Shown here: in pieces, positions 3,589-44,800 of the stretch | Numbering within the stretch: position 1 is the stretch's first letter | Layout: every line of letters begins with the position of its first letter | NCBI GenBank assembly: GCA_016208965.1 | Contig: JACQXB010000023.1 | Coordinates: 25,904 to 89,903 of the forward strand | From: Nitrospirota bacterium | Lineage (GTDB): Bacteria > Nitrospirota > Thermodesulfovibrionia > UBA6902 > DSMQ01 | Direction of reading: 5' to 3' | DNA length: 64,000 bases | Position numbers and translations under genes: made by a program | The notes under the pieces: model-generated | What the model saw: only the letters and a program-made list of their open reading frames with translations | Told to the model about the DNA's origin: nothing | The model's database searches: none

Positions 3589-4611
3589 TCATAGTGCCTC
3601 TTCTACAGTTTTAACAATGCCCTCTGGGGTAAGCCCATATAGCTTTAATAAAGCATCAGGATTACCCGAACAGCCAAAGACATCCCTTATCCCTATTCTC
3701 TTTACAGGCACAGGGTAATTCTCAGAGAGAAATTCACATACCGCCCCTCCAAGACCCCCTATCACTGAATGTTCCTCTGCAGTAATAATTAACTTTGAGC
3801 TTTTTGCTGCTAAAAGCAGAGTGTCTTCATCAAGGGGTTTTATTGTAGACATATTAATAACACCGGTATCGATACCTTGACTTGAAAGTGACTTTGCAGC
3901 CTTCAAAGCAGCATCTACCATAATGCCTACTGCTATTATATTAGCATCTTTTCCTATACGAAATACATATGCCCGTCCGAGTTTGAATTTATAATCAGGA
4001 GGCATGATGCACGGAACCTTTACCCTTCCAAGTCTGACATAAACAGGGCCGGAGTAATCTGCTATTGCATTGATTACTGAGGTGGTTTCAATTGCATCAG
4101 CCGGGACAATTACTGTCATGTTTGGGAGTACCCTCATCAGCGCTATATCTTCAAGCGCCTGATGGGATGCCCCGTCTTCCCCTACCGTTATCCCCCCATG
4201 AGTTGCAACAAGTTTGACATTTGTATTTGAATAGCATATAACCAGCCTTATCTGGTCCCATGCCCTGCCTGTTTCAAAGACTGCAAATGTTGAGGCAAAA
4301 GGGACTTTGCCTGTCAGAGACAATCCTGCTGCTGTCCCAACCATATCCTGCTCTGAAACGCCTAAATTAAAAAACCTATGAGGGAATGCCTTTGCAAATT
4401 TCGCTGTCTTTGTTGAACCTGAGAGGTCAGCATCTAACACTACAATATTATCCCTCTTTTTCCCGAGCTCAAGCAAAGCCTCTCCATAAGCATCCCTTGT
4501 TGCAATCATTTTTACTTCTGTGTTCTGTGCTCTGTGCTCAAATCCCCCCATCCCCCCTTTGCTAAAGGGGGGTGAGGGGGGATTATTTGTGCTCTGTGTT
4601 CTTTCCCCCAT
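3589..4611 (-). CDS. Transketolase C-terminal subunit; the first ~34 codons are repeat-derived (alternative start 4509)
   Basis: ATRDAYGEAL, DADLSGST, GEDGASHQ, EEHSVIGGLG. Confidence 0.92.
   Translation of the reverse strand: MGERTQSTNNPPSPPFSKGGMGGFEHRAQNTEVKMIATRDAYGEALLELGKKRDNIVVLDADLSGSTKTAKFAKAFPHRFFNLGVSEQDMVGTAAGLSLTGKVPFASTFAVFETGRAWDQIRLVICYSNTNVKLVATHGGITVGEDGASHQALEDIALMRVLPNMTVIVPADAIETTSVINAIADYSGPVYVRLGRVKVPCIMPPDYKFKLGRAYVFRIGKDANIIAVGIMVDAALKAAKSLSSQGIDTGVINMSTIKPLDEDTLLLAAKSSKLIITAEEHSVIGGLGGAVCEFLSENYPVPVKRIGIRDVFGCSGNPDALLKLYGLTPEGIVKTVEEAL
4541..4584. repeat. 44-bp G/C palindromic element, copy 1
   Basis: AATCCCCCCATCCCCCCTTTGCTAAAGGGGGGTGAGGGGGGATT; near-identical copies at 37365, 38652 and 43362. 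Confidence 0.95.
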
Positions 4612-5466
4612 TTACTCAAGCTCCTTTAATGCCCTTTCAAGCTCTGCTGGTGTTGGAGCAATGCCATGATATTCTACCTTTCCTTCAAAAAATGAAACGC
4701 CCTTGCCTTTTATAGTATGTGCAATTATAACAGTAGGTTTGCCTTTAATGTTTTCTGCCTCATTAAGGGCGCTGAGTATTTGTTCCATATTATGTCCGTC
4801 AACCTCCATTACATGCCAACCAAATGCGGCCCATTTGTCATGTAAGGGAGCAATTCTCATCACTTCCTCTACAGGACCATCTATCTGCAATCCGTTGTTG
4901 TCCACAATGCCGCAGATATTATCAAGTCCATAATGTGCCGCTGTCATAGCAGCTTCCCATATCTGCCCCTCCTGTATCTCGCCATCACCCATAAGGCAGT
5001 ATACCCTTGAAGAAATCTTATCAAGCCTAAATCCTAAGGCTATGCCATTAGCAACAGATAACCCCTGGCCTAATGAACCTGTTGATATTTCAACCCCTGG
5101 AAGCGTCCTGCAATATGGATGTCCCTGAAGAGGACTATGGATTTTTCTCAGGGTAGAAAGCAGCTCAACCGAAAAAAAACCTGTCTTTGCAAGAACTGCA
5201 TATAGAAGAGGCGCTACATGTCCTTTTGAGAGGATAAACCTGTCTCTTTCTCTCCACTCAGGGTCTTTAGGATTAAATTTCATCTTCGCAAAGAAAAGCG
5301 CTGCTACCACATCAACGGCTGAGAGCGAGCCACCTGTATGACCTGAGCCTGCTTCTGTCAACATCTTCAGGATGAGGACCCTTATCTCTCGTGCAATGTT
5401 CTTAAGGGTTTCAATATCTGTGATTTTTCCACCTGCTGCAAAGCCCATTTCTTTTGCTCCTCTCAT
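4612..5466 (-). CDS. Transketolase N-terminal (TPP-binding) subunit
   Basis: SGHTGGSLS, RDRFILSKGH, STGSLGQG, GDGE..EG. Confidence 0.93.
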   Translation of the reverse strand: MRGAKEMGFAAGGKITDIETLKNIAREIRVLILKMLTEAGSGHTGGSLSAVDVVAALFFAKMKFNPKDPEWRERDRFILSKGHVAPLLYAVLAKTGFFSVELLSTLRKIHSPLQGHPYCRTLPGVEISTGSLGQGLSVANGIALGFRLDKISSRVYCLMGDGEIQEGQIWEAAMTAAHYGLDNICGIVDNNGLQIDGPVEEVMRIAPLHDKWAAFGWHVMEVDGHNMEQILSALNEAENIKGKPTVIIAHTIKGKGVSFFEGKVEYHGIAPTPAELERALKELE

Positions 5467-5503
5467 TTCTTATTGAACAGACCCTTAATGCTAAAAATAT
5501 TTT

Positions 5504-5849
5504 ACCCTGTTAGAAAACCCCGCCATTTATGGTGGGGATGATAAAAATAAATAATATTCATCTTAATACAAATGCATTAAATTACTTTACATAAAATCTC
5601 CCCCTTACCCCTCTTTGCCAAAGAGGGGGACAAAGTATGGCTTTGCCAAAGAGGGGAATATGAGGAATCTCCCCCTTTGGTATGAACCGCTCTGGTTCAT
5701 ACCTTTGTAAAAGGGGGATGAAGGGGGATTTTTTAATTGTATTCATTTTACCTTTGTAATTTTAGTATGAACCGTTATGGTTCATACTTTACTTAATGCG
5801 TTTGTATTAGAAAGGGCGAAGTTTAAAGTCCTATCCTTTCTAACGGGGT
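5504..5849. repeat. REP-like element with CCCCGTTAGAAA/TTTCTAACGGGG arms, enclosing a MITE
   Basis: Arms at 5504-5516 and 5837-5849; the same arm family is at 6765-6861, 44979-44998 and 60042-60072. Confidence 0.8.
5564..5809. mobile_element. ~245-bp MITE, copy A (TIR ATACAAAYGCATTAA, TA flanks)
   Basis: Terminal inverted repeats; near-identical inverted copy at 21119-21363. Confidence 0.9.
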
Positions 5850-5892
5850 TTACGAATTATAAAACGATAAGATGATTAGAAGCAATAGATTT

Positions 5893-6486
5893 TTAGATTA
5901 CATACTTAACCACTATGAAGCCAAGGATTAATAACGCAAAGAATATAAGTGTGAGAAGGTTGAAATATTTATCTATAAAATCCTTTATCCTCGGACCATA
6001 AAAGTAAATAAATCCTGCAACAAGGAAAAACCTTCCAGCCCGCCCTGCAATTGATGATAGGATAAAAATAGGGAAGTTTATCTTGAACGCACCAGCAGCT
6101 ATGGTAAATACCTTGTATGGTATAGGTGTAAATGCTGCCACGCTAACTACCCATGCATCGTATTTCATATAAAGAGATTGAAGGTATTTATACTTTTCCA
6201 TCGCTGCATATCCATAAAATTCAAGAATAGGCATTCCGACCATATCCATAAATCCAAAGCCTATACCATATCCAATCACTCCTCCAATTACAGAACCAAC
6301 TGTACAAAAAGTGGCGTACTTAAATGCCTTTTTAGGAATAGAAATAGATAGTGTTATTAAAAGCACATCAGGTGGAACTGGGAAAAAGGATGACTCGGTA
6401 ACAGCAAGTAAAAAAAGTGCAGGCACAGCATAAGGAGTTTCTGCCCAGTGCAATACCCAGTCATAAAGTTTTTTTAGATATTTCAT
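5893..6486 (-). CDS. YqaA/DedA family membrane protein
   Basis: ESSFFPVPPDVLL, FTPIPYKVFTIAAG. Confidence 0.88.
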   Translation of the reverse strand: MKYLKKLYDWVLHWAETPYAVPALFLLAVTESSFFPVPPDVLLITLSISIPKKAFKYATFCTVGSVIGGVIGYGIGFGFMDMVGMPILEFYGYAAMEKYKYLQSLYMKYDAWVVSVAAFTPIPYKVFTIAAGAFKINFPIFILSSIAGRAGRFFLVAGFIYFYGPRIKDFIDKYFNLLTLIFFALLILGFIVVKYVI

Positions 6487-6764
6487 GGCTGTTAAACAAA
6501 GTAGGCGTCCCGATCCCGAAGCGTCGGGACAGGACGCCTACTTTGTTAGGTTAAATATACCTAACGAAACTATCTCAGGGGTGTGGCCGCCAAGCTTAAT
6601 AAAAACACTCCTGAGATAGTTTAAATTTACAAAGTAAAAACACCTTGATTTTCAATCTCGCCACCTTGAGTTATTTTCTCTTCCAGAGCTATAGGTGTAT
6701 CTTAGGAAAGATGCTACACTAAATTATACCAATAACTGTAAGTTTTTGTCTATATAAAATTTTG

Positions 6765-6861
6765 CCCCGTTAGAAAGAACGTCCCGCCTTTTAGGCGGGG
6801 TAAAAAAATATAAATAGCGAGACCCGCAGCAAATTGCAATGGGTCGAGCTTTCTAACGGGG
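6765..6861. repeat. REP-like element (CCCCGTTAGAAA arms) with internal hairpins
   Basis: CCCCGTTAGAAA...TTTCTAACGGGG, with internal CCCGCCTTTTAGGCGGG. Confidence 0.75.
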
Positions 6862-6900
6862 GTTACATAAAAATATTTATTTTCAAAGAGTTACCTTTGT

Positions 6901-7881
6901 TTAGTATAACCCAAGTACATTCTTAACCTCTGTCAGGGTCTCTTTGGCTGCCATCTTTGCCTTTTCAGTTCCTGCCCGCGCTATATCTTTTAAAAACTCA
7001 GGTTTCTCCAAAAATCTTTTCCGGGCAGACCATATAGGTTCCAACACTTTAAAAATGTTCTTTATTAATATCTCCTTGCAATCAAGACAGCCAATCGCGG
7101 CTGTGCGGCAGCTGTCAGCAACCTCCTCTTGTTCATTTTTTGTTGAAAATATCTTATGAAGCTGAAATACAGGTGAAAGCTCAGGGTCGCCTTTGTCTGT
7201 ACGTCTTATCCTTTTGGGGTCAGTCATCATGGTTTTTATCTTCTGTTCAACCTCCTTAGGGGCATCACTGAGATAAATACAGTTATTGTAGCTCTTGCTC
7301 ATCTTTCTTCCGTCTAATCCTGTTACTTTTGGAAACTCTGTTAAAAGTCCCTCCGGCTCAGGGAACACATCCCCATAAAGGAAGTTAAATCTCCTGCAAA
7401 TCTCCCTTGTGATTTCCAGATGGGACAACTGGTCAATACCAACAGGAACATAATTAGCCTTATAAATCAGTATGTCTGCTGACTGAAGCACAGGGTAACC
7501 TAAAAATCCATGGGTAGCCAAATCCCTGTCTTTGATCTCTTGCTGTTTTTCCTTATATGTTGGGACGCGCTCAAGCCATCCCAGGGGTGTTATCATTGAA
7601 AGCAGTATATGTAGTTCAGCATGTTCAGGAACCCATGATTGTATAAATATAGTTGACTTTTTAGGGTCCAGTCCAACAGCAAGATAGTTAACAAGCATAT
7701 CTTCAATATTTTCTTTTATCTGAGATGCGTCAGTGTATTGAGTAGTAAGGGCATGCCAATCTGCAATAAAATAATAACACTCGTATTTCTCCTGCAACCT
7801 CACCCAATTTTGTAGTGCCCCCACTAAATTCCCTAAATGAAGCCTCCCGCTGGGCTGCATTCCACTAAGGACCCTTTCCAC
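6901..7881 (-). CDS. trpS: Tryptophan--tRNA ligase
   Basis: SGMQPSG-HLGN, YPVLQSADIL, KMSKS. Confidence 0.97.
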   Translation of the reverse strand: MERVLSGMQPSGRLHLGNLVGALQNWVRLQEKYECYYFIADWHALTTQYTDASQIKENIEDMLVNYLAVGLDPKKSTIFIQSWVPEHAELHILLSMITPLGWLERVPTYKEKQQEIKDRDLATHGFLGYPVLQSADILIYKANYVPVGIDQLSHLEITREICRRFNFLYGDVFPEPEGLLTEFPKVTGLDGRKMSKSYNNCIYLSDAPKEVEQKIKTMMTDPKRIRRTDKGDPELSPVFQLHKIFSTKNEQEEVADSCRTAAIGCLDCKEILIKNIFKVLEPIWSARKRFLEKPEFLKDIARAGTEKAKMAAKETLTEVKNVLGLY

Positions 7882-7882
7882 T

Positions 7883-8509
7883 TTAACCTCCTATTAAAAG
7901 GTACACCAGTAAAATGACAATTGGAAATATTATATAACTTGTCACACCTAAGAATATAAGCCCGAGTAATATGATGAACCCATAAGGCTCAATCCTGCTA
8001 TAAGCAACTGCATGTTTATGTGATAGCAATCCCATTAGTATTTTGCTTCCATCAAGAGGTGGAATAGGAATAAGATTAAATACACCAAGACCAATGTTTA
8101 ATACAACACAGTATCTGAGCATTAAAACCACTGGGATGTAAATCTCATCAGGTAAGGCAAGGGTAGTACGGAGAGTTTTATATAAAAATGCTGATATAAT
8201 TGCAATTATAAAATTTGCCCCTGGCCCTGCAATAGAGACCCACATCATGTCCTGCCTTGGGTTTTTCAGATTATATGGATTAACAGGAACAGGCTTTGCC
8301 CACCCGATCATTCTCGTAAATATAAAAACCATTGTACCTATAGGGTCAAGATGCTTTAATGGGTTTAAAGTTAACCTGCCTGCAAATCTTGCCGTGGGGT
8401 CGCCGAGTTTGTCAGCAACAAAGCCGTGGGCTACCTCGTGAAAGGTAACAGCAATCAAAAGTGGAACCGCTAATAAGGCGGTCTCTCTAATTATTTGGGT
8501 AAAGTCCAA
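7883..8509 (-). CDS. Site-2 protease (M50 family)
   Basis: HEVAH zinc motif, NLIPIPPLDG. Confidence 0.92.
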   Translation of the reverse strand: MDFTQIIRETALLAVPLLIAVTFHEVAHGFVADKLGDPTARFAGRLTLNPLKHLDPIGTMVFIFTRMIGWAKPVPVNPYNLKNPRQDMMWVSIAGPGANFIIAIISAFLYKTLRTTLALPDEIYIPVVLMLRYCVVLNIGLGVFNLIPIPPLDGSKILMGLLSHKHAVAYSRIEPYGFIILLGLIFLGVTSYIIFPIVILLVYLLIGG

Positions 8510-8619
8510 GATATCTCACCTTCTATAGTATTGTTTTTCTCTTCAAGCAGTGGATATAACTATGATACATAATTTATAAAATAAAAAACTACTTCCGTTG
8601 GGCAGTTGTTGCCTTATAT

Positions 8620-8667
8620 CTGGCATCTTGTATCTTGAATCTTGAATCCTGTATCATGAATCTTGCA
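8620..8667. repeat. Degenerate heptamer tandem repeat (TCYTGNA)
   Basis: tctggca tcttgta tcttgaa tcttgaa tcctgta tcatgaa tcttgca. Confidence 0.85.
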
Positions 8668-8675
8668 AGTAAACA

Positions 8676-8747
8676 GCCGATGTAGCTCAGTGGCAGAGCA
8701 ACTGATTCGTAATCAGTAGGTCGAGGGTTCAAGTCCCTCCATCGGCT
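8676..8747 (+). tRNA. tRNA-Thr(CGT)
   Basis: GCCGATG/CATCGGC acceptor stem, CTGAT-TCGTA-ATCAG anticodon arm, GTTCAAG T-loop. Confidence 0.95.
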
Positions 8748-8805
8748 TTTTTTATTTTCAATGACTTACAGCCGATAGAGATTAACTAATACCCCTATCA
8801 CACCA

Positions 8806-8912
8806 CTAATTGTATAGTTTTTGTATAGTTGGTTTCTCACCGTTAATAGTGTTATCCAGTATATCTACCGCTTTAACTTTGTGGCTTGGTGCAAGATGGG
8901 CATATCTGAGGG
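8806..8912 (-). pseudogene. Tyrosine integrase C-terminal remnant 1
   Basis: Translates LRYAHLAPSHKVKAVDILDNTINGEKPTIQKLYN*, containing the catalytic Tyr motif; lies next to the tRNA 3' end. Confidence 0.8.
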
Positions 8913-9039
8913 AACATCTTTATCGCGTGCTTTCAAGGCGAGGCAATCCTGAAATAAGAAGCCTGCTGACACTGCTTCACGCTATGGGACTGGAGCTTAG
9001 TGTAAAGGTGCAGAAACAGGTTTATGCGTAAGTCAGCAG
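8909..9039 (+). pseudogene. Duplicated 3' part of the addiction-module antidote gene
   Basis: 131 bp nearly identical to 12461-12591. Confidence 0.9.
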
Positions 9040-9088
9040 GGAACGGAAGCAAGGATTTTCTCTGTTAATTCTCCTACTTGGCTTTAAG

Positions 9089-9319
9089 CTATGAAAAAGC
9101 GAGTTCAGCTTTAATAGGAAGGGTTTTGATGTCTTTTGCATTTTTAAACCATTTCCTGAAGTTCAGGATTGAAAAACCAACCACTTCGCCACTCACAGGA
9201 TTAACCCTAAGAAAGAAGTCATCTTCTACTTCTTTGGAAATAGCTTTTTCAGGGTCGCCTATCGAAATGTCCAAAACATCCCCTTCGTCATCATATGCCA
9301 TTCTTAATTCTTTTCCCAT
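9089..9319 (-). CDS. DUF2283-like small protein (putative antitoxin)
   Basis: YDDEGDVLDI...VGFSILN; overlaps the upstream gene. Confidence 0.75.
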   Translation of the reverse strand: MGKELRMAYDDEGDVLDISIGDPEKAISKEVEDDFFLRVNPVSGEVVGFSILNFRKWFKNAKDIKTLPIKAELAFS

Positions 9320-9609
9320 AAAGTTTTTCCTTTTTTGATTACATCTGTAATATAACAAGTAAGAATAAAGGAACGCAAACCCTTCTTTGTTGCCACAAGC
9401 ATATATTTCCCATCAAAAATATCACTATAAAACTTGTAGTAAAGCAATACATCTGCGTCTCTTTTGCTTTTCTTAACATAATCTGGCGTGGACAGGACTT
9501 CGTGAATTCTTTCTTTATAAGGCTCTATTTCTATATGCTCCCTAACAATGTGGCGCCATCTTTCATCAGTAAGTTCAATTACGTTACTAAAGATATCTGT
9601 TATCGTCAT
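9304..9609 (-). CDS. Putative RelE/barnase-fold nuclease toxin (DUF4258/PBECR-like)
   Basis: IELTDERWRHIVREH...FILTCY; paired with the DUF2283-like gene. Confidence 0.6.
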   Translation of the reverse strand: MTITDIFSNVIELTDERWRHIVREHIEIEPYKERIHEVLSTPDYVKKSKRDADVLLYYKFYSDIFDGKYMLVATKKGLRSFILTCYITDVIKKGKTLWEKN

Positions 9610-9808
9610 AATCTATTTTTTTATTTTTCATCTTGAAAGCAAAACCATTATAACACATTGTATGTGTTACCAGAATGTGAAATCTCTTTCATGCCATCTG
9701 CGGTATGAACCGCATTGTATCCTGAACCGTCTGGTGCAGGATGGTACATACCCGCGGAGAAGAAAAATGTGGGATGTGGTGCTTCTATTTCTCCTAAATT
9801 AATAACCT

Positions 9809-10207: not shown

Positions 10208-10546
10208 AAGAATTAGATAATAGTTTTATCTTATATAATCTTTATTTCTTTTGCAATGAGAGATAAAAACCTCTCATGGTCTTCTGGCGAAAGACTTTCT
10301 CAAACTGAAACACAGGGTCAAGGAGAAAAAATGCTTCACAGAAACTCCTCAAATGCCTCTCCTCTTTCCTCCTCCAAAGACAGGGAAGCTATCCAAGCCT
10401 CTAATTCAGCCCATGAGGAAACACCATCAGTCGGGCTTAGAAGATTAACTTTCTGTATAAAAAAGTGTAGCTCAACGGAGGGATAGAATCAATTAGAATT
10501 TCACTTAAAAATCTCCCCTCACCCCTTTGTCAAAGAGGGGATTAAA

Positions 10547-10883: not shown

Positions 10884-10884
10884 T

Positions 10885-21118: not shown

Positions 21119-21363
21119 TAATGCAAACGCATTAAGTAAAGTATGAACCATAACGGTTCATACTAAAGTTACAAAAGTAAAATGAATACAATTAAAAAAT
21201 CCCCCTTCATCCCCCTTTTACAAAGGTATGAACCAGAGCGGTTCATACCAAAGGGGGAGATTCCTTACGTTCCCCTCTTTAGCAAAGCCATACTTTGTTC
21301 CCCTCTTTGGCAAAGAGGGGTGAGGGGAGATTTTATGTAAACTAATTTAATGCGTTTGTATTA
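21119..21363. mobile_element. ~245-bp MITE, copy B (inverted relative to copy A)
   Basis: Reverse complement of 5564-5809 with few substitutions. Confidence 0.9.
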
Positions 21364-24389: not shown

Positions 24390-26812
24390 CAGTTCTCTTC
24401 TTCTTTTTCGCTCTCAGGTACCCTGGCAACACTTACAACCTTATCATCTTTTCCGAGGTCTATGAGTCTCACACCCTGCGTATTCCTGCCAATTGTGGAA
24501 ATATTTGACGCCTTAAGCCTGATGATCTTCCCGCTGCTTGCAATAATCATTATCTCATCCTCAGTAGTAACCTGCAGTACGCCTACCACTTTTCCGTTCC
24601 TTGGTGTCACCTTTATAGTGATTACCCCTTTGCCGGCCCTGCTCTGGACACGATATTTATCTAAGGGTGTCCTCTTGCCGTAGCCATTTTCTGTCACTGT
24701 AAGCAATGTTGCCTTTTCATCTAAAACATCTGCTGATACTACTTTATCTTTAGGCTGAAGCCTTATACCTCTTACCCCATGCGCAACCCTGCCTATCTCT
24801 CTTACATTTTCTTCCTTGAATCTTATTGATAAACCTTCTCTGGTGCTAAGGACAATATCTTGTTTACCGTCTGTTATTCTTACGCCGATTAATTCATCGT
24901 CAGGGTCAAGATTTATTGCATTTATCCCCTTGGTCCGTGGGTTGCTATAAGCGCTAAGCGCTGTCTTTTTTACAACCCCTTTCTCAGTTGCCATGAATAA
25001 ATAAAGCCCTTCTTTGAATTCCTTTACAGGAAGGACTGTTGTTATGTTCTCACCTTCTACCAACTGAAGAAGGTTTACAATTGCCTTGCCCTTTGCAGCC
25101 CTGCCTGCCTCTGGTATCTGATACACCTTAAGCCAGTAAAGTCTTCCTTTATTTGTGAAGAAAAGAAGGTAGTCATGCGTAGAGGCAGTAAAGAGCTGTT
25201 CAACAAAATCTTCTTCTCTTGTCTCCATTCCGATAAGTCCCTTCCCACCCCTTCGCTGGCTTTTGTAAAGGCTGAGCGGATTACGTTTTATATAACCCTG
25301 ATGAGAAATGGTGATAACCATCTCTTCCTCTGTTATGAGGTCTTCTATGGTTATCTCCTTTGCCTCTCCTGTTATCTCTGTCCTTCTTGGGTCAGCATAA
25401 TTCTTTTTTATCTCAACCGATTCTTCTTTTATTATGTTATTTACCAATGCATCGCTTGCAAGGATTGCCTTTAACCTCTCAATATCTTTAAGTGTATCCT
25501 TATAATCCCTTATAATCTTTTCCCTCTCAAGCCCGGTGAGCCTCTGCAGTTTCATATCAAGGATTGCCTGTGCCTGAACCTTTGTCAGTGGGAATTTTTT
25601 GATTAACCCCTCAAGCGCCTCCTCAGGACTCTTTGATTTTCTTATGAGACTTATAACCTCATCAAGATGGTCAAGGGCAATCTTTAATCCTTCAAGTATG
25701 TGAGCCTTTTCCTCTGCCTTTCTTAATTCAAATCTTGTCTTCCTTGCTATAACATCCCGCCTGTGCGCAAGGAAATACGAAAGAATTCTTTTAATGTCTA
25801 AAACCTTTGGCTGGCTATTCACAATTGTAAGCATTATTATGCCAAAAGTGGACTCCATTGCAGTGTGCTTGTAAAGCTGATTAAGCACCACCTGTGCCAG
25901 CTCTCCGCGCTTAAGCTCTACAACAACCCTTATACCTTCCCTATCAGATTCATCTCTGATGTCTGATATGCCTTCAATCTTTTTCTCGCGCACAAGCTCT
26001 GCAATCTTCTCTATAAGCCTTGCCTTATTTACCTGATACGGAAGCTCTGTGACTATTATGCTTTCACTTTTCCCCTCCTGCTCAATCTCTGCCTTTGCCC
26101 TGATTTTGATAAGCCCTCTGCCTGTAGTATATGCATCAACAATGCCCTGTCTTCCGTGAATGATTCCGCCTGTTGGGAAGTCAGGTCCTTTAATTACCTT
26201 CAAGAGCTTCTCAACCGCTGTATCAGGATTGTCTATCATCAATAAAAGTCCGTCAATAATTTCTCCAAGATTATGAGGCGGTATATTAGTAGCCATTCCA
26301 ACTGCAATGCCTGATGAGCCGTTAATTATAAGGTTTGGAATCTTTGACGGCAGTACCACAGGCTCTTCTGTGGTCTCATCAAAGTTTGTCACAAAGTCAA
26401 CGGTTTCCTTGTCTATGTCTGCAAGTATCTCCTCTGCAATTTTCATAAGGCGCGCCTCTGTATACCTGTAAGCCGCTGGCGGGTCGCCGTCTATGGAGCC
26501 AAAGTTTCCCTGTCCGTCAATAAGTGGATAGCGCATATTAAAGTCCTGAGCAAGCCTTACAAGCGTATCATAAACAGCAGAATCGCCATGCGGGTGGTAC
26601 TTCTTAAGCACCTCTCCGACAACGCCTGCACACTTTGAATATCTCTTTCCCGGCAGAAGCCCTTCTCTAAGCATTGCATAAAGGATTCTTCTCTGCACAG
26701 GCTTAAGCCCGTCTCTTACCTCAGGAAGCGCCCTTCCAATAATTACGCTCATTGCGTAATCAAGGTAGCTGACCTTCATCTCTTCTTCAATGTTTATCAT
26801 TAAGTTAGACAT
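24389..26812 (-). CDS. gyrA: DNA gyrase subunit A
   Basis: [17 protein letters not shown], GyrA-box QRRGGKG. Confidence 0.98.
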
Positions 26813-35893: not shown

Positions 35894-37074
35894 AAACAGA
35901 TATTTTTGAAAAATGCCAAAGGTTTACCGCTGCTAAAGAGGCAATGGCTGCAGGGATATATCCTTATTTCCGTGTGTTAGAATCCGCGCAGGAGCCAGAG
36001 GTAATTGTTAATGGTAAAAGGATGATAATGATTGGTTCAAACAATTATCTCGGTCTTACAAACCATCCGAGGGTAAAGGAGTCAGCGATAGAGGCAATTA
36101 GGAGGTATGGAACTGGTTGTGCAGGTTCAAGGTTCTTAAGCGGAACTCTTGACATACATGTTGCCTTGGAGGAAAAACTTGCCCGCTTTATGAGAAAAGA
36201 GACTGCCTTGGTTTTCTCAACAGGATTTCAAACAAACCTCGGTGTGATACCATCTCTTATAGGTAAAGATGATGTCGTCTTAATAGACAAAATGGACCAT
36301 GCGAGTATAATTGATGGCTGCAGGCTTTCGTTTGGCGAGGTAAAAAAGTATAAACACAATGATATTAAAGACCTTGAAAGACTTCTTCAGCAGTATAGTG
36401 ATAAGGCAAAACTAATAGTTGTTGACGGCGTATTTAGCATGGAGGGAGATATCGTTGACCTGCCCAATGTAGTAAGGATTGCTAAAAAATACGATGCACG
36501 GGTGATGGTTGACGATGCCCATGGTATAGGTGTTCTTGGTAAGACAGGGCGCGGTACTGCTGAGCATTTTGATTTAGAGGACGAAGTAGACCTAATCATG
36601 GGAACATATTCTAAATCTCTTGCCTCTATCGGTGGATTTATCTCAGGTTCAGATGATGTAATCCACTATATAAAACACTTTGCAAGGTCTTTTATCTTCA
36701 GTGCAAGCCCCCCTCCTGCATCTATATCAGCAGTAAGTACTGCAATAGATATAATTGAACAAGAACCGGAGAGACTGGATCGCCTGTGGCGCAATACAAG
36801 GAAAATGTTTAATGGATTTAAATCATTGGGATTTGATACAGGACAGAGCGAGACCCCTATAATACCTATTATTGTCGGAGAAGACATGAAGGCATTTACA
36901 ATGGCAAGGATGCTTCACAACAGGGGTATCTTTGCCAATGTGGCAGTAAACCCTGCAGTGCCTAATGGCAAAGCCCTCATACGGACAAGTTATATGGCAA
37001 CACATACGGATGAGCAGCTTGATAAGGTTCTTATGGAATTTAAAGAAGTTGGTAAGATTTTAGGGATAATTTAA
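35854..37074 (+). CDS. Alpha-oxoamine synthase, probably serine palmitoyltransferase (start may be GTG 35884)
   Basis: GSNNYLGL, GTGCAGSRFL.GT, TGFQTNLG, DHASIIDG, GTYSKSL. Confidence 0.85.
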   Translation: MDSRVVQDSQVDLKTDIFEKCQRFTAAKEAMAAGIYPYFRVLESAQEPEVIVNGKRMIMIGSNNYLGLTNHPRVKESAIEAIRRYGTGCAGSRFLSGTLDIHVALEEKLARFMRKETALVFSTGFQTNLGVIPSLIGKDDVVLIDKMDHASIIDGCRLSFGEVKKYKHNDIKDLERLLQQYSDKAKLIVVDGVFSMEGDIVDLPNVVRIAKKYDARVMVDDAHGIGVLGKTGRGTAEHFDLEDEVDLIMGTYSKSLASIGGFISGSDDVIHYIKHFARSFIFSASPPPASISAVSTAIDIIEQEPERLDRLWRNTRKMFNGFKSLGFDTGQSETPIIPIIVGEDMKAFTMARMLHNRGIFANVAVNPAVPNGKALIRTSYMATHTDEQLDKVLMEFKEVGKILGII

Positions 37075-37076
37075 AA

Positions 37077-38279
37077 TTGCTTGAGGTCCTTGCTGTAAAT
37101 AATAGAAGCTCATTTAAAGAATTCCTAAATCTCCCCTTTAAGTTATACGATAAAAATCCTTTCTGGGTGCCTCCACTCTTAAAAGACCTGAAAGAACAAT
37201 TCTCACCCCAAAACCCGTTTTTAAAGCATGCTGAGATAGCCCCTTTTATAGCAAAAATTGATGGTAAAACCGTTGGAAGAATAACCGCTATATATAACTC
37301 TGCCCATATAGATTTTCATAATGAAGCACACATGCCTCGAAGAGACACAAAAGACAATGAAAATAATCCCCCCTCGCCCCCCTTTAGCAAAGGGGGGATG
37401 GGGGGATTTTCAGGTGAGAAAACGGGTTTTTTTGGTTTTTTTGAATGCATAGATTACCCTGTCGTTGCAAAGGCGCTTCTTGAAAGGGTTAAGCAATGGC
37501 TTAGAGAGAAAGGGATAACTATACTCCGCGGACCCGTAAATTTTTCCACCAACGATGAATGCGGCTTACTTATAGACGGATATAACTGCTCACCAATGAT
37601 TATGATGCCTTATAATCCCTCATATTACTCAATGCTCCTTGAACAATGTGGATTCGCAAAGGCAAAGGACCTCTATGCATACATAATAGATGTACCCAAG
37701 ACCATCCTCCCGGAGAAAGTCTTTAGAGTCGTGAGGATTGCGGAGAAACACAACATAACCGTTAGGCACATAAACATCAAATCTTTTAGGCAAGAGATGG
37801 AGATTTTTAAAAGTATCTATAATTCAGCATGGGAGCGAAACTGGGGCTTTGTCCCAATGACCGATGAAGAAATAGACCATGAAGCAAAAAAGCTGAAGCC
37901 AATAATAATCCCGGAACTCACATTGATAGCCGAATGTAGAGGTCAGCCGGTTGGTTTTATGATGATGCTGCCTGATTTCAATTATGTCCTGAAGAAACTC
38001 AATGGCAGACTTTTCCCGTTTGGAATTCTTAAAGCCCTCTGGTATTCAAGAAAGATAAAAGACCTGCGGCTCCTGCTTCTTGGGATAAAAGAGGGTTTCA
38101 GGAAACAGGGTGTTGATGCGTTTCTATTGATGGAGGGATTAAGGGCTTTAAAAAATGGCGGTTATGAAAGGGTTGAGTTTTCATGGGTTTTGGAAGACAA
38201 TGTCCCCGTGCAAAAACTTGCAGGAATGTTCAGTGGAAGATTGTACAAGGTATATCGGATATACGAGACAAAGATTTAA
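37077..38279 (+). CDS. GNAT-fold acyltransferase (bacterial ceramide synthase/YghO-like)
   Basis: LY...PFWVPPL, GFFGFFEC, RGP.NFSTNDECGLL, YNP.YY, NWGFVP, EFSWVLEDN. Confidence 0.8.
   Translation: MLEVLAVNNRSSFKEFLNLPFKLYDKNPFWVPPLLKDLKEQFSPQNPFLKHAEIAPFIAKIDGKTVGRITAIYNSAHIDFHNEAHMPRRDTKDNENNPPSPPFSKGGMGGFSGEKTGFFGFFECIDYPVVAKALLERVKQWLREKGITILRGPVNFSTNDECGLLIDGYNCSPMIMMPYNPSYYSMLLEQCGFAKAKDLYAYIIDVPKTILPEKVFRVVRIAEKHNITVRHINIKSFRQEMEIFKSIYNSAWERNWGFVPMTDEEIDHEAKKLKPIIIPELTLIAECRGQPVGFMMMLPDFNYVLKKLNGRLFPFGILKALWYSRKIKDLRLLLLGIKEGFRKQGVDAFLLMEGLRALKNGGYERVEFSWVLEDNVPVQKLAGMFSGRLYKVYRIYETKI
37365..37408. repeat. 44-bp G/C palindromic element, copy 2 (in frame)
   Basis: Encodes NPPSPPFSKGGMGG. 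Confidence 0.95.
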
Positions 38280-38302
38280 GAAGCTTTCAAGAAACATGCA
38301 TA

Positions 38303-39199
38303 TCACTTAACTAATCGCTTTATATACCTCTCAAAAAGCCTTAGGCCCTCCATGTGTTTCTCTGTAAAATCGTACGAAATCCCTTTCCAATACCGAACAA
38401 GTTCTTTTTCGCTAAGCCATTTTATCTGTGGTGCGTGGTGGGCTATAAGAGGAAATTCTTTGTATGCATATTTTTTTGCGAGGATTAAGTCAGATGAGAG
38501 CTTCTCAATAAGTTCTTTTTTTTCGGAAAGCGCCTTTTTTCTTACCATCCAGAGTGCAAAGACAAATGGTAAGCCTGTATGCCTAAACCATAATTCCCCA
38601 AGGTCGTAGACAAACAAGGGTAAAGGGCAAGGGGTAAGGGGCAAGGTTAAAAATCCCCCCTCGCCCCCCTTTACTAAAGGGGGGATGGGGGGATTAAACC
38701 CGCAACTCATAACTGTCTTTCTTGCCTTCATTGCATTATCCCCTATTAGCAGGCATGCGGAGCAAAAGGATAGGAGTTTGCTGATGTTGTTGCTTTTTAC
38801 TACTACAAAGCGGCATTTTAGTGAATAAAATTCTCTCAGGATAATTTTCAGAAGGGCAACAGAGGTTTCAGAATCAGAAGACACTGCGATTGTTTTTCCA
38901 CTAAGTTCATCTAAATGAAGCTTTGAAAATAAAAATATGCTGCATATGGGTCCCGAAGAACTTATGGAGAGATTAGGAATAATGTTATATTTTTCTTTGT
39001 ATCTTAGGTATTCTATGGATGATGATGGGCTTACATCTATCCCTCCATTCCTTAACATCTTGTTGAGTTCCGATGGCACGCCGCGAGTAAACTTATATCC
39101 AGAATGGCCGCATTTGTTATTTAGGTAATAATAAATGGGAACTAAGTTTGCGTATGGGATTTTACCTATTTTTAGAGTAGATTTATTTTTTTTTAACAC
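38303..39199 (-). CDS. mqnA: Chorismate dehydratase (futalosine pathway)
   Basis: IGKIPYAN, PSELNKML, SETS, LLIGDNA, DLGELW...TGLPFVFALW. Confidence 0.9.
   Translation of the reverse strand: MLKKNKSTLKIGKIPYANLVPIYYYLNNKCGHSGYKFTRGVPSELNKMLRNGGIDVSPSSSIEYLRYKEKYNIIPNLSISSSGPICSIFLFSKLHLDELSGKTIAVSSDSETSVALLKIILREFYSLKCRFVVVKSNNISKLLSFCSACLLIGDNAMKARKTVMSCGFNPPIPPLVKGGEGGFLTLPLTPCPLPLFVYDLGELWFRHTGLPFVFALWMVRKKALSEKKELIEKLSSDLILAKKYAYKEFPLIAHHAPQIKWLSEKELVRYWKGISYDFTEKHMEGLRLFERYIKRLVK
38652..38695. repeat. 44-bp G/C palindromic element, copy 3 (in frame)
   Basis: Encodes NPPIPPLVKGGEGGF on the minus strand. Confidence 0.95.
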
Positions 39200-39307
39200 C
39201 TGATAATTTTATCATAGAGACAAAATTATAACCAATCTATTAAACTACTTATAAATAATTTTAAAAATTATTAATTATTTTTAAACTTCTATAAGGAGAA
39301 ATGACAC

Positions 39308-40645
39308 ATGAACAAAAGAGGTTTTATCTTATTAGCTTGTGCCATAAGTGTTTTATCAATCCTTTTAACATTCAACGGTCTCCTTGCTTCTCAGGAATAT
39401 TCTTTATCAGACCTATACAAGCTCGCCCTTGAACGAAGTGAGACCATACAAATAGCGAGAGAGGAACTCTATATCTCAGAACAGGGGAAGGACAAGGCTT
39501 TCTCCGCATTTCTTCCAACATTTTCTGCCTTTGGAAGTCATATAAGATACAGCGGAGAAAAACGCTCATCCATCTCTGTCTTACAACCTGATTACAGCAA
39601 CTCCTGGGGGGTCAGATTAGACCGGTCCCTATCTTTAGGGGGACAAGAAGTCATATCCTATGGGATTTCAAAAGATAGCATCCAAAAAAGCATATACGAC
39701 CTTAACAAAGTTAAGGAAGACTATCTATTAAGTGTGGCTGCTGCATATTATGATGTGTTGAAATCAAAAAAATCACTGGATATAGCAAAAGCAAATGTTG
39801 AGAGGCTTACAAAACACAGGGATGCAGCAAAGACAAGGCTTAAGATAGGAGAGGTTACAAAGACAGTACTTTTAAGGGCAGAGGCAGAACTTTCAGGCGC
39901 CCAGTCAGATTTGATAAAGGCTGAAAATAACCTGAAACTTGCAAAGATAATACTTGCAAGGATTGTAGGCATAACAGAAAATTATGATGTGAAAGAGAGT
40001 CAGGAGTCAACAGATTTAAAAAATATAGTACCTGCTGACTGCCAACTGTCAACCATCGACTGCCTTAAAGAAAAAGCAGTGTCTGAGAGGACAGAGTTAA
40101 AAGCCATTGCCATTGAAAAGAAAATAGCGGAAGACAAGATTAAATATGCAAAAGGCTCATACTGGCCTACACTTTCAGTTGAGGGTGTATATTCCAGAAA
40201 AGAGGACTACCCATCTTCAGTCTCTGCCGTTGGGGAGACCATATACGGTGGACTTAAACTTGATTTCCCATTTTTTGAGGGAGGGCTGCGGATGGCGGAG
40301 GTGCGGGAGGCAAGGGCGAAACAAAGACAGACAGAATACCGTTTCTCAGATTTAAAAAATTCTATAAATATAGATGTTGAAGATGCGTATTTATCTGTAA
40401 TTACACAATCTGGAATTTTAACAAAACTTGAGACACAGGTAAACTATGCAATGGATAATTATAATGCTGTGTCCAAGCAGTTTGAATATGGACTCGCAAA
40501 CAGTATAGATGTTATGGATGCAAATACACTGCTCGTTACTGCAGAGAGAGAACTTGCCAATGCAAGATATGATTATCAGTTAGCAATCTTAAAATTAAAA
40601 CGAGCAACCGGGACGCTTCTGAAGACAGCAGTCAGTATGCAGTAG
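39308..40645 (+). CDS. TolC-family outer membrane efflux protein
   Basis: Signal peptide and two OEP repeats. Confidence 0.9.
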   Translation: MNKRGFILLACAISVLSILLTFNGLLASQEYSLSDLYKLALERSETIQIAREELYISEQGKDKAFSAFLPTFSAFGSHIRYSGEKRSSISVLQPDYSNSWGVRLDRSLSLGGQEVISYGISKDSIQKSIYDLNKVKEDYLLSVAAAYYDVLKSKKSLDIAKANVERLTKHRDAAKTRLKIGEVTKTVLLRAEAELSGAQSDLIKAENNLKLAKIILARIVGITENYDVKESQESTDLKNIVPADCQLSTIDCLKEKAVSERTELKAIAIEKKIAEDKIKYAKGSYWPTLSVEGVYSRKEDYPSSVSAVGETIYGGLKLDFPFFEGGLRMAEVREARAKQRQTEYRFSDLKNSINIDVEDAYLSVITQSGILTKLETQVNYAMDNYNAVSKQFEYGLANSIDVMDANTLLVTAERELANARYDYQLAILKLKRATGTLLKTAVSMQ

Positions 40646-40704
40646 TCAGTGAACAGTGGAAAATAAGAATAAAGAATAAAAACAAGAATAGGAGTGAATA
40701 CATC

Positions 40705-41790
40705 ATGAAAAGAATTTTTTTATTATGCTGTTTACTCTCTACTGCCTACTGTCTAATTTTTCTTCCTGCGTGTAAGAAAAAGGAAGCAAGAACAACTCCA
40801 GAAAGGGTTATCAATGTTCAGGTTCAGGCTGCCAAGAAAAAATCCTTTAGACCATTTATAGAAACCATTGGCACATTAAATCCCTATGAGGAGGTCATTG
40901 TAAGTGCAGAGGTTGATGGCATTCTGAAGGACGTAAAGGTTGATGAAGGAACAGTGGTTTCAAAAGGAATGGTTCTGGCAGCTATAGATGATACAGATTA
41001 TGACCTTGAGGTTAAGAAGGTAGAGGCGGCTTTGAAACAAGCAGAAGCATCTCTTGCAAATACACGACTTGAGTACCAGCGAAATGAAACCCTTTATAAA
41101 GAAGAACTCGTGACTAAACAAAAGTTTGATGATGTATCAACAAGGCTCTCTATTGCTGAGGCTGATATTGACAGGGCAAAAGCAGCGCTCGCTATCGCAA
41201 AACAAAAACTCACAAAAACAAAAATCTACTCTTCGCTAACAGGATTGATAAAAGAAAAGAAGGTTTCAGTAGGTGATTATGTAAGAAATGGCACAAATCT
41301 TTTCGTAATCATCCAGAACAATCCTCTTAAGCTAAATTTTACAGTTACGGAAAAGGATGTAGGGAAAATTAAAAAAGGGCAGGAAGTTACATTTAAAGTA
41401 GATGCCTTTTCTGATAAGGAATTCAACGGAAAACTAAGCATCATCTATCCAGGTCTTGATGAGAAGACAAGGACGCTTCAGGTAGAGGCATTAGTCCCCA
41501 ATCCTAAAGGGCTTTTAAAATCAGGGCTCTTTACACATGTAACATTATATACAGGTGGTTTAAAGGATACTGTTGTTGCTCCGATAACATCTCTACTCTA
41601 TGAGGGAGAGAAAATAAAGATTTTTGTGGTAGAGGAAGACAGGGCAGAGGAGAGACCGGTGAAAATAGGTAAAAAGCATGGCGAAATGATGGAGATTACC
41701 CAAGGATTAAGAGAGGGAGAGCAGGTAGTTGTGGTGGGACAACAAAATCTCTCCGAAGGAATAAAAATCAATGTATCAAACAGACAGTAA
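40705..41790 (+). CDS. RND efflux periplasmic adaptor (lipoprotein)
   Basis: Lipobox LPA-C, lipoyl/hairpin pattern. Confidence 0.9.
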   Translation: MKRIFLLCCLLSTAYCLIFLPACKKKEARTTPERVINVQVQAAKKKSFRPFIETIGTLNPYEEVIVSAEVDGILKDVKVDEGTVVSKGMVLAAIDDTDYDLEVKKVEAALKQAEASLANTRLEYQRNETLYKEELVTKQKFDDVSTRLSIAEADIDRAKAALAIAKQKLTKTKIYSSLTGLIKEKKVSVGDYVRNGTNLFVIIQNNPLKLNFTVTEKDVGKIKKGQEVTFKVDAFSDKEFNGKLSIIYPGLDEKTRTLQVEALVPNPKGLLKSGLFTHVTLYTGGLKDTVVAPITSLLYEGEKIKIFVVEEDRAEERPVKIGKKHGEMMEITQGLREGEQVVVVGQQNLSEGIKINVSNRQ

Positions 41791-41864
41791 CGTATCGCGG
41801 TATATGCAGAATACAGAAATTCCTTTAACTTTTAACTTTTCACTTTCAACTTTTAACTTTACCT

Positions 41865-44800
41865 ATGTGGCTCGCTAATACCTCAATTAAACGTCCAGTC
41901 TTTGCAACAATGGTCATTCTCGGACTTGTTGTCATCGGTATTATTAGTTATCCCCGCATCAGGCTTGACCTCTTTCCAAAGGTTGACTTCCCAATTGTGA
42001 ATATCACCACGACATTAAAAGGCGCAAGTCCTGAAATCATGGACATTGATGTGACAGACAAAATAGAAGAGGCAGTGAATACGATAAACGGCGTAAAGAC
42101 CATAACCTCCACAAGTACCGAAGGACGTTCTACAGTTGTAGTGGAATTTGTACTTGAAAGGGACATTGACCTTGCTGTACAGGATGTAAGGGAAAAAATT
42201 TCACTCATAAGAAGACAGCTTCCGAGAGACATAGATGAGCCGGTTATAGAAAAGGTTGATCCTGACGCAACCCCTGTTATGTGGCTTGGCCTGTCAGGTG
42301 AAAAGTCTGTTAGAGAACTTTCTACATACGCTGATGAGGTATTAAAGGAACAATTACAGAGGATAAATGGTGTTGGCGCTATAAGGATGGGTGGGCTAAG
42401 GCTAAGGCAGGTGAGGCTCTGGCTTGATGCCGACAGGTTGAGGGCGTATCAGATAACGGCTGATGATGTGATAAGGGCGATTCAGAGAGAAAATGTCGAA
42501 CTTCCTGCCGGAAAAATTGAGAGCGATACAAAAGAATACTCAATAAAGATTAGAGGTGAATTTCTGAGGGTGCAGGATTTTAATGAACTTATCATAAATT
42601 ATTACAAGGGCGCCCCTGTGAGACTCAGGGATGTTGGCAAAGCTGAAGATGGAATGGTAGAGAAACATTCAATTGCTCGGTTTAACGGAATGCCAGCAGT
42701 TGGTCTTGGAATACAGAAGCAATCAGGAACCAATACTGTAGAGGTGATAGATAGGATAAAAAAAGAACTTGTAAATATCAGCAGCGCCCTCCCTCCGGGG
42801 ATGAAACTCGGGATAACTTTTGACCAATCCATTTTTATAAAACGTTCCATCAGGGAAGTTCAGAAGCATCTCATCTATGGAGGTTTCTTTGCAACATTGG
42901 CTGTGCTCCTATTTCTGAAGAGCATAAGAATCACATTGATAAGTGCCTTAGCTATCCCGACATCCATAATTTCTACATTCACCATTATGAATGCCTTTGG
43001 TTTTACATTCAATAATATGACAATGCTTGCCCTCTCCCTTTCTATTGGCATCCTTATTGATGACGCTATCATCGTCATTGAAAATATTCACCGGCATATA
43101 GAGGAAGGCATGGCTCCACGAGAGGCTGCATCTTTTGCAACCTCTGAGATAGGGCTTGCGGTTATGGCAACGACCTTTGCTATTGTTGCCATTTTCCTTC
43201 CCGTGGCATTTATGAAAGGCATTATCGGAATGTTCTTCCTCCAGTTTGCACTTACTGTTGTTTTTGCAGTGCTGGTGTCGCTGTTTGTCTCTTTTACATT
43301 AACTCCGATGCTGGCATCGCGGTATTTAAAAAGTCGGGAGTCAGGGGTCAGAAGTCAGAATAATCCCCCCATCCCCCCCTTTGACAAAGGGGGGATGGGG
43401 GGATTTTGGCTTGAAAAAGGATATGAAAAGATAAAGGAGCTTTACAGAGAGTTGTTAAAGGTTGCCCTCAATCACAAGGCAATTGTAATAATACTCGCGA
43501 TAGGCATCTTTGTCTTCAGTCTTTTTATTACAAGATTTCTGGGTAAGGAATTCGTACCCCCTGAAGACCAGAGCAGATTTATTGTTAGACTCAAGGCGCC
43601 CATAGATTATTCTGTAGATGAGGTAGACAGGCTCTTCAAAAAGGCAGAGGACATTATTAGACATACCCCTGAGGTAAAGACTGTATTTTACGCACTGGGA
43701 CTTGGTGGAGAGGTAAATAAAGGAATAATGTTTATTAGTCTTAAGCCAAGAACTGAGAGGGAAAAGAGTCAAGGGGAGATAATGGCAGGGGTGAGAAAGA
43801 AATTCAGGCAGATACCAGGACTTCAGGGAACTGCGGAAGACGTTTCACTTGTGGGAGGCGGTGTCAGGATGGTTCCTATTCAATACAGTATAAGGGGAAG
43901 GGATTTAGAGAGACTTAAGGAATATACAACCTCTATAGTCTCGGAGTTTTCAAAACTGCCAGGCATTGTTGATATTGATACATCCTTAGAAACAGGAAAA
44001 CCTGAATTCAGGGTCTATATAGACAGAGATAAGGCAGCAGACCTCGGGGTTGATATAGCAACCATTGCAGAGGCAGTAAACTTCCTTATCGGAGGAGAAG
44101 TTGATGTAACAAAATATAAGGATGAATCAAGGGGCAGAAGATATGATGTGAGGGCAAGGCTCTTTCCTGATAATAGGACAGACCCTGATGATATAGGAAG
44201 ACTCTATGTGAGGGCAAAAGACGGAAGGCTTGTAGAACTTTCAAATGTTGTTAAAATTCAGGAGGCGGGTGGCCCAGGCACCATAAGCAGGGTTGACAGG
44301 CAAAGGGCTATAACCCTCTTTGCAAACCTTGAAGGTAAGCCGCTCGGCACTGCAAAGGGAGAACTTGATGAGATAGCAAGGAAAGTCCTTCCGCCGGATT
44401 ATTCAGGGATGTACAAAGGGATGGGTGAGATGATGGGAGAATCCTTCAACTATCTGATGTTCGCCCTTATCCTTGGTATCATTATGGCATACATGGTACT
44501 TGCCTCACAGTTTGAAAGCTTTATCCATCCTTTTACAATCTTGCTTTCTCTGCCATTTACCTTCATTGGTGCATTCGGTGCCCTCCTTATTACTGGGAAA
44601 ACCATTAACATCTTCAGTCTCATAGGAATCATTCTCTTGATGGGGCTTGTGAAAAAGAACGCTATCCTTTTAGTTGACTACACCAATACACTCAGGACGA
44701 GAGGAATGGAAAGAAGAGAAGCCATCCTTCAGGCAGGACCTGTGAGATTACGTCCCATACTCATGACAACCTTTGCAATGATATTTGGGATGATGCCCAT

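Follow-up and report, generated by a model that had tools for sequence, protein, structure and literature searches.

We describe a 44-bp palindrome that lies in frame in four unrelated genes within a 64,000-nucleotide stretch of DNA from a Nitrospirota bacterium (positions 25,904 to 89,903 of contig JACQXB010000023.1; hereafter the window, which is part of contig C17 of the source genome, G000). The palindrome probably represents a non-autonomous, hairpin-forming mobile element of Nitrospirota that spreads at the DNA level and is translated where it lies in genes, and we read it as a putative new counterpart, adapted to coding sequence, of the Rickettsia palindromic elements (RPEs). The source genome is a metagenome-assembled genome (MAG) of 1.67 Mb in 50 contigs, with a G+C content of 39.5% and a completeness of 88%; its DNA is present in groundwater metagenome runs, and the closest named relatives of one of the host proteins, MqnA, come from MAGs labeled 'Nitrospirae bacterium'.

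The palindrome and its copies in genes

Each of the four copies in the window starts with AAT, ends with ATT, measures 44 bp, and has the form AAT-C6-(3 or 2 nt)-C6-TTT-N3-AAA-G6-(2 or 3 nt)-G6-ATT; the palindrome is often lengthened to AAAAT...ATTTT, which amounts to 48 nt. When the window was searched for the half-motif with up to two mismatches allowed, 16 matches were found against 0.29 expected, and none of 100 shuffled sequences reached that number. As single-stranded DNA, each window copy is predicted to form two G/C stems, each of 9 bp, and an asymmetric 3x2 internal loop; the predicted folding energy is between -19 and -22 kcal/mol, with z between -4 and -5. In an Rfam scan of the window, the gathering score was reached only by three tRNAs, and no family was assigned at the palindromes.

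The original prediction, which had been made from the letters of the window without database searches, placed the copies at 4541, 37365, 38652, and 43362 and claimed that all of them were in frame in intact genes and read in a single phase. All four are indeed present and, on the -, +, -, and + strands, respectively, share one phase giving NPP(S/I)PP(F/L)xKGG(M/E)GGF. The first copy (4541..4584, - strand; read as NPPSPPFSKGGMGGF) is situated within a CACAGAG-type heptamer tract in the N-terminal linker of the C-terminal subunit of transketolase (3589..4611, - strand; Pfam Transket_pyr and Transketolase_C). While this copy is 5' of the Pfam domain, all four orthologues examined have an MG(E/T).. 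start right after the stop codon of the upstream gene, followed by a variable linker and then (M)IATRDAYG; the copy is therefore placed in the coding N-terminal linker, the start codon being the ATG at 4611, which immediately follows the stop codon of the upstream subunit gene, and an intergenic position was dropped for the same reason. The second copy (37365-37408, + strand), also read as NPPSPPFSKGGMGGF, belongs to a GNAT-family acetyltransferase-like protein (37077..38279, + strand) of 400 amino acids, the relatives of which have ~369-390. Here, the palindrome forms part of a 93-bp insertion of 31 codons (37322..37414, + strand), in which the palindrome is preceded by a left module of 43 nt and followed by TTCAGG. 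In terms of the inserted unit, therefore, the predicted 44 bp stands for the palindrome itself but not for the insertion in the GNAT gene, which is 93 bp long. The third copy (38652..38695, - strand; read as NPPIPPLVKGGEGGF) occupies a hypervariable loop of MqnA in the futalosine pathway (38303..39199, - strand; Pfam VitK2_biosynth) and is adjoined by a repeat tract at 38615-38651 (TRF consensus unit of 13 nt; read as LTLPLTPCPLPL). The fourth (43362..43405, + strand; read as NPPIPPFDKGGMGGF) comes after the predicted transmembrane segment 6 of an RND (AcrB-type) permease (41865..44960, + strand; Pfam ACR_tran) and is adjoined by a heptamer tract of AGTCAGN at 43331-43360. Pfam agrees with the four host families originally named, although the match of the GNAT, a putative bCerS-like protein, is weak, and heptamer tracts adjoin three of the four copies as had been noticed, the GNAT copy being the exception; examples of such tracts in the window are 4517-4539, 38615-38651, and 43331-43360.

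For a genome-wide census, an nhmmer profile was made from the first matches and run over the 1.67-Mb genome, by which 135 merged loci were obtained: namely, 47 full single-hairpin copies and 88 partial matches, many of which pair as the two ends of multi-hairpin elements of 75-140 bp. The core is 44 nt long in 26 of the 47 full copies and 45-46 nt in 16. At the first three positions on either side (-1 to -3, +1 to +3), the ends are conserved in 41-46 of the 47 copies, and the conservation decays outward (34-36 copies at +/-4 and 26-29 at +/-5). [quoted passage not shown] Flanks of 40/47 copies match AT..AT, which is indistinguishable from the palindrome's own ends.

We regarded a copy as internal to an open reading frame (ORF) when at least 40 sense codons in one frame were present on each side. 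By this definition, 39 of the 47 full copies are internal to long ORFs, compared with 3250 of 5000 (65%) random 44-nt windows; three others are near the 5' ends of ORFs, one of which is the transketolase copy, and five are intergenic. None of the 47 copies splits a gene. Every one of the 26 copies that have a 44-nt core is ORF-compatible when the transketolase copy is counted, and 5 of the 16 copies with a 45-46-nt core are non-coding. Besides the window hosts, 30 further host ORFs were examined with Pfam; 28 have a Pfam family, and the domain matches continue across the insert. These hosts include topoisomerase I, isoleucyl-tRNA synthetase (IleRS), ribonucleotide reductase, PurL, chorismate synthase, HisA/F, HemC, LpxK, MnmE, MoeA, P-type ATPase, ComEC, and NuoG-like proteins among others, and are unrelated housekeeping enzymes without a common function. 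When MqnA was used as a tblastn query, the insert alone gave matches (E values of 1e-4 to 1e-6) to unrelated ORFs, which numbered more than 30 and came from several genomes.

Read from AAT, the palindrome contains no stop codons in either orientation. Among the 39 internal copies, 29 use AAT as a codon (NPP...), 7 are read as IPP..., and 3 as SP.... Under a null model in which all stop-free combinations of orientation and phase are equally likely, 18.4 copies would be expected in the NPP phase (P = 0.00026 by simulation), and the bias toward one phase claimed for the window thus holds for the internal full copies throughout the genome (29/39). As can be read from the sequence directly, a symmetric 45-mer with TCA/TGA spacers would hold an in-frame TGA; the spacer asymmetry (3 nt versus 2 nt) therefore leaves both orientations open in the NPP phase.

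Insertion sites in host proteins

An exact empty site was found for the GNAT insertion. Two other studies provided runs X5 and X7, in the contigs of which 37321 is joined to 37415; precisely 93 nt are hence missing, the junction being ambiguous by 3 nt (TGA). These contigs derive from a close relative that is ~5-7% divergent over the pieces compared. Also at the protein level, residues 84-110 are omitted in 18/18 matching relatives, which are aligned as two segments, and a clean 31-residue gap is seen in 13/13 aligned orthologues. In 80/80 metagenome loci, furthermore, the match is ~31 residues shorter than the 400-residue query; none of these loci exceeds 65% identity, and the element was not found in their 914 kb.

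Other sites are in segments that vary among orthologues. In MqnA, many orthologues lack residues ~162-195, and the site in 11 aligned orthologues is a hypervariable loop with peptides that look heptamer-coded, one relative having a palindrome copy of its own. The inserts in IleRS and topoisomerase I are likewise in loops variable among all orthologues. We also observed that orthologues have different heptamer-like peptides in the same loops of MqnA, IleRS, and topoisomerase I and in the linker of the transketolase subunit. In that linker of the source genome, the palindrome interrupts the heptamer tract, and 48 nt are present between two whole heptamer units. The spacing in this one linker fits a true unit of 48 nt (AAAAT...ATTTT), which would always preserve the frame.

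The nearest orthologues of the RND permease, with 82% and 76% identity, carry other sequence of similar length at the site; the copy is common to the related strain, because the contigs of that strain end inside the copy. In one P-type ATPase, the last codons of the element (EGG) are found where orthologues have a conserved EGK or DGK, and a degenerate form at a second P-type ATPase site is common to two relatives. At least two sites therefore look like replacement rather than pure insertion. The original idea of a segment inserted into host proteins and missing from their orthologues is accordingly borne out cleanly by the GNAT protein, but not by the RND permease and the one ATPase site, which are replacement-like.

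Some insertions appear, from the alignment of a TIGR01777 epimerase-like family, to be old and fixed. By our by-eye estimate, a palindrome-derived segment, IPLNPPLLKGDRGGLP, is present in most of 28 aligned homologues, and a younger NPPSPPFSKGGMGGF site in a minority of them. At alignment columns ~205-270, several Nitrospirota homologues have a second insert, SKIPLFDKEGQGEI, nested in the older palindrome-derived peptide; this nested insert is a TCTCCCC-type hairpin read in frame. A search for homologues of the TIGR01777 host returned nothing above 77% identity and hence no strain-level empty site there. In the AlphaFold2 model of this host, both inserts are placed between predicted secondary-structure elements, with a mean pLDDT (predicted local distance difference test) of 57.

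Two related genomes, G001 and G004 (89-99% DNA identity), were compared in three regions, in which no clean polymorphism of a solo copy was found; instead, a gap of 1.15 kb between two copies was seen in the first region, the second lies in a G001-specific island of 6 kb, and the third has no match. The first concerns a gene for a 2-oxoacid:ferredoxin oxidoreductase-like protein of 619 codons (positions 4181-5420 of locus L190, G001:C3), which has two in-frame palindromes 1.15 kb apart; the counterpart (G004:C147:3623-4326) has a single copy without the stretch between the two palindromes of G001. This difference may reflect either a collapsed MAG assembly or recombination between the copies. 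The same G001 locus also holds a 214-bp MITE that belongs to another family (L190 10345-10558); it is cleanly absent at the orthologous position, G004:C147:10691, and present in many copies elsewhere in G004.

In runs X1 and X4, the probable source samples, Logan contigs covering positions 36500-44500 of the window start or end inside each palindrome, and the palindromes have a summed depth 10-25x as great as their flanks. Short-read assemblies of these genomes are fragmented by repeats of this size.

A modular hairpin family across the phylum

The palindrome belongs to a modular hairpin family that comprises solo, 80-bp, 93-bp, and 110-140-bp forms. The solo units are mostly in genes, and the multi-hairpin forms of 75-140 bp are mostly intergenic. 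Four copies of the 93-bp form exist in the source genome, and flanks are shared among copies over variable lengths, those for the 93-bp form being 20, 34, and 43 nt. At two intergenic sites of the source genome (C27:51939-51963 and C12:21482-21506), a different hairpin, GTCATTCC...GGAATGAC, stands between the left module of 43 nt and the right end TTTTCAGGTGA, which suggests that hairpin cassettes could be exchanged between fixed ends. Relatives of the hairpin had been predicted within a MITE and near 10508 of the window, and these were found: a MITE-like multi-hairpin element of ~140 bp is intergenic at 5593..5732 (C17:31496-31635), the ends of which are variants of the outer arms of the palindrome, with a second, inverted copy at 21196..21334 (C17:47099-47237), and a partial (half) element is intergenic at 10510..10542 (C17:36413-36445). 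This ~140-bp element has an inner hairpin, GGTATGAACC..GGTTCATACC, and further copies on C22, C10, and C37.

The association with heptamers extends beyond the window. A heptamer tract was found within 4 nt of 10/47 full copies, compared with 0.48 expected and a maximum of four in 2000 randomizations. Heptamers are themselves unusually abundant: TRF tracts of the source genome number 904 with a period of 7 and 279 with a period of 8, and of the 573 tracts that are at least 21 nt long, 173 are inside long ORFs.

When 251 sampled Nitrospirota genomes were surveyed for the core pattern, 67 had it, as did 32 of the 41 genomes of the order, with 0 to ~85 matches per genome; the reversed pattern, used as a control, gave no match in any surveyed genome. 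The distribution is patchy by family, some families being all positive (e.g., 11/11) and others all negative (0/39 and 0/28). In G066, a genome of another class, all six solo copies are in ORFs, five of them internally, and four of these five are in the NPP phase; the long multi-hairpin forms are outside long ORFs in 19/22 cases. This split matches that of the source genome, with solo forms in genes and long mosaics between genes.

Origin of the copies and comparison with known repeats

We consider it likely that the copies arose by mobility of DNA, as follows. The 44-bp sequence would be the minimal 'solo' form of a non-autonomous hairpin-forming repeat family that spreads at the DNA level, presumably with the help of a trans-acting enzyme, and new copies would land in genes. 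Insertions into tolerant surface loops and linkers would leave the host gene intact and be translated as ~15 residues, NPPxPP(F/L)xKGGxGG(F); host genes may survive because the unit is stop-free in both orientations and, in its common extended form, has a length divisible by three. Selection would then remove the copies that shift the frame or bring a stop codon. Intergenic solo hairpins would be short-lived, being either deleted or overgrown by nested insertion into multi-hairpin mosaics, and solo copies could persist in genes because only a precise in-frame loss is tolerated there, so that the process would act as a ratchet enriching copies in genes. The census, the frame bias, the GNAT orthologues, the 93-nt empty site, and the patchy distribution support the mobile micro-element adding a Pro/Gly loop that was originally proposed.

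Several observations weigh against a mobile element of this kind, and the first group concerns the enzyme that would move it. The original prediction was correct in that no mobilizer is present in the window, and none was found in the 88%-complete genome either. Three Y1_Tnp matches were obtained in the source genome, which are an IS200-type gene, a RAYT (REP-associated tyrosine transposase)-like gene of 283 amino acids, and a fragment; no copy of the element was detected beside these three genes or at seven Y1 loci of four relatives (nhmmer, E<=1), so that a RAYT or IS200 gene flanked by the motif, for which a search had originally been suggested, was not seen at any of these loci. Nor was a parent insertion sequence (IS) with matching ends and a transposase found in the source genome, which is 88% complete and in which repeats assemble poorly, and no multi-copy family of IS-like ORFs exists in the MAG. 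Second, no direct repeat or target-site duplication beyond a possible AT was detected for the 47 copies (offsets 0-6, lengths 1-9). Third, the sole exact empty site is that of the 93-bp composite, the ends of which differ from those of the palindrome. Also, the inserts in the RND permease and the one P-type ATPase replace host residues with a net gain of ~4-5 and 11 amino acids, respectively, and not 15; such replacement-like sites fit simple cut-and-paste poorly. A plain selfish transposon, furthermore, predicts no enrichment in genes above random, and the ratchet is an added assumption; translation of the inserts is a deduction from the conservation of the frame, and the structural model placing two inserts in loops is poor, as its mean pLDDT indicates.

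Regarding candidate enzymes, the RAYT-like Y1 transposase with an HUH motif (locus L081, G000:C24:4738-6824; ORF 1009-1860, - strand) adjoins a heptamer tract and a 19-nt direct repeat and is not flanked by the palindrome, and the IS200-type TnpA is encoded at C10:100448-100813. In a comparison of 40 relatives, the seven genomes that lack a Y1 gene have 0-5 pattern matches, and no match was obtained in genomes that encode 17 and 6 Y1 genes; the link between Y1 genes and the element is weak, and kinship confounds it. Four regions in which paired element ends are separated by 0.4-4 kb were also inspected; three of these enclose ordinary genes, and one has no ORF of at least 70 amino acids.

A bolder proposal, which we put forward tentatively, is that the solo 44/48-nt unit is more than a survivor of selection, namely an element adapted to coding sequence, either targeted to protein-coding DNA or preferentially kept there, and that it takes part together with the adjoining heptamers in an enzyme-driven, phylum-wide and continual rewriting of surface loops and linkers in ordinary enzymes. 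As adaptations to coding, the asymmetric bulge would remove the in-frame TGA, the length would keep the frame, and both orientations would be readable.

Alternatively, the palindrome might spread without a dedicated transposase, when replication that stalls or breaks at hairpins and heptamers is repaired from another copy by microhomology-mediated template switching or short-patch gene conversion and loop cassettes are thereby overwritten. We regard this main alternative as unlikely; it would account for the replacement-like sites in the RND permease and the ATPase (EGG at EGK/DGK), the lack of target-site duplication, the flanks that copies share over variable lengths (in the 93-bp form, 20, 34, and 43 nt), the left and right modules around a different hairpin at C27:51939 and C12:21482, the adjacency to heptamers in 10/47 copies against 0.48 expected, and the hypervariability of the loops concerned in all orthologues. 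The sharply uniform unit, with a 44-nt core in 26/47 copies and ends kept in 41-46/47, is nonetheless explained less well by such repair, as are the ~30 copies with unique flanks up to their ends, and the range from 0 to ~85 pattern matches in relative genomes resembles bursts of an element.

The original prediction had also allowed that the inserts are bypassed at the RNA level. The hairpins are strong, and mobile GC-rich inserts in a yeast mitochondrial genome are bypassed by ribosomes; removal from the mRNA or ribosomal bypass would leave the host proteins unchanged. Neither bypass nor splicing needs open frames, yet none of the 47 copies breaks a frame, phases containing a stop are avoided, and one phase is favored, and old copies have stayed in frame while drifting in the manner of ordinary protein sequence. 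With every coding copy free of stops, which translation would need but bypass would not, this alternative gains no support, and we consider it very improbable. Still more improbable is that the peptide is a functional motif made or kept by selection, with the DNA palindrome as its by-product: while one frame is preferred and some copies are ancient and widely kept, the conservation is in DNA but not in protein, as both orientations are used with different middle residues, and the palindrome also occurs outside genes and as the ends of intergenic MITE-like elements, in hosts without a common function, and at sites where close relatives lack the insert. Finally, it is hardly credible that the copies are assembly artefacts from contigs misjoined or filled at a repeat; Logan contigs of all four runs do break at each copy, the G004 contig lacks the 1.15 kb between two G001 copies, and repeats of this kind can confuse assemblers, but the orthologous protein is in frame on both sides at the aligned sites and Pfam domains cross the insert elsewhere, runs of three studies and 67 genomes that were assembled independently all contain the repeat, and the filled and empty alleles differ by exactly 93 nt.

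Like RPEs, the Nitrospirota palindrome is a dispersed repeat found in frame in unrelated, intact genes and absent from their orthologues. In the parts of the literature cited here, RPEs are described as dispersed palindromic repeats in frame in unrelated housekeeping genes, which add putatively translated peptide segments and show lineage-specific proliferation with some ancient shared inserts, and their translation is deduced from inference and structural compatibility (PMC10969869, PMC1779305). Nonetheless, RPEs are given as 100-150 bp (PMC1779305), whereas the unit here is 44-48 bp; it is therefore outside the RPE-1 to RPE-10 families, being set apart from them by length. About half of the 44 RPEs in R. 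conorii are described as being in ORFs, compared with 39/47 for the Nitrospirota element and 26/26 when the core is 44 nt. The hosts of RPEs are described as obligate intracellular alphaproteobacteria, whereas that of the present element is a free-living groundwater bacterium. The G6/C6 stem design, the link to heptamers, and the modular nesting are, moreover, not reported for RPEs in the relevant passages of these papers (PMC10969869, PMC1779305).

With MITEs, the palindrome has in common that it is short, non-autonomous, and multi-copy, has terminal inverted repeats and longer relatives with the same ends, and is present or absent between relatives; intragenic MITEs that give rise to in-frame fusions have been described (PMC10969869). 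In contrast to MITEs, neither a parent IS nor a clear target-site duplication was found in our searches, 44 bp is below the usual size of MITEs, and the bias is toward coding instead of intergenic DNA. Repetitive extragenic palindromic (REP) sequences are G/C-rich imperfect palindromes of similar size, and a REPIN is a doublet of inverted REPs in one long hairpin, a geometry that is the same in the Nitrospirota element, as far as the cited account describes it (PMC3116915). REPs are, however, described there as extragenic by definition, whereas 39/47 copies here are inside ORFs, and the GTAG or CGTC tag described for the ends of REPs is absent; unlike in the REP-RAYT system, the RAYT-like gene on C24 and the seven Y1 loci of relatives have no flanking copy of the element.

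The small dispersed repeats (SDRs) of cyanobacteria, reportedly described by Elhai et al. in 2008, are said to be very small and mobile, nested in MITEs, and located beside tandem heptamer repeats (short tandemly repeated repetitive sequences, STRR). SDRs are not known to have a mobilizer. They differ from the Nitrospirota element in phylum and sequence. Also, the coding palindromes of Nematomorpha mitochondria and the QMITEs of Coxiella resemble the element in that inverted repeats are found in coding genes or give in-frame fusions, but differ in genomes, sizes, and sequences as far as the cited excerpts go (PMC6649704, PMC5896051). In our literature search, which included works citing the RPE papers of Ogata and did not extend to supplements, no such element was described for Nitrospirota, and the peptide strings of the element gave no match.

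In-frame colonization of genes by palindromic selfish DNA has been described mainly for Rickettsia, where it was called unique but recurrent. What is new here is an RPE-like lifestyle in a free-living, environmentally important phylum with a unit three times smaller, together with a bias toward genes above random placement and a persistence until copies appear to be a fixed part of enzyme families. In practical terms, the repeats break short-read assemblies and can give false deletions in MAGs, and they inflate the variation of protein length and seed spurious similarity between unrelated proteins. With 44 nt and ~15 residues, the element offers a compact system for understanding how mobile DNA makes insertions and deletions in proteins and how proteins tolerate them; if the solo unit is indeed adapted to coding sequence, as we tentatively propose, it would be a general source of such variation in the enzymes of Nitrospirota.

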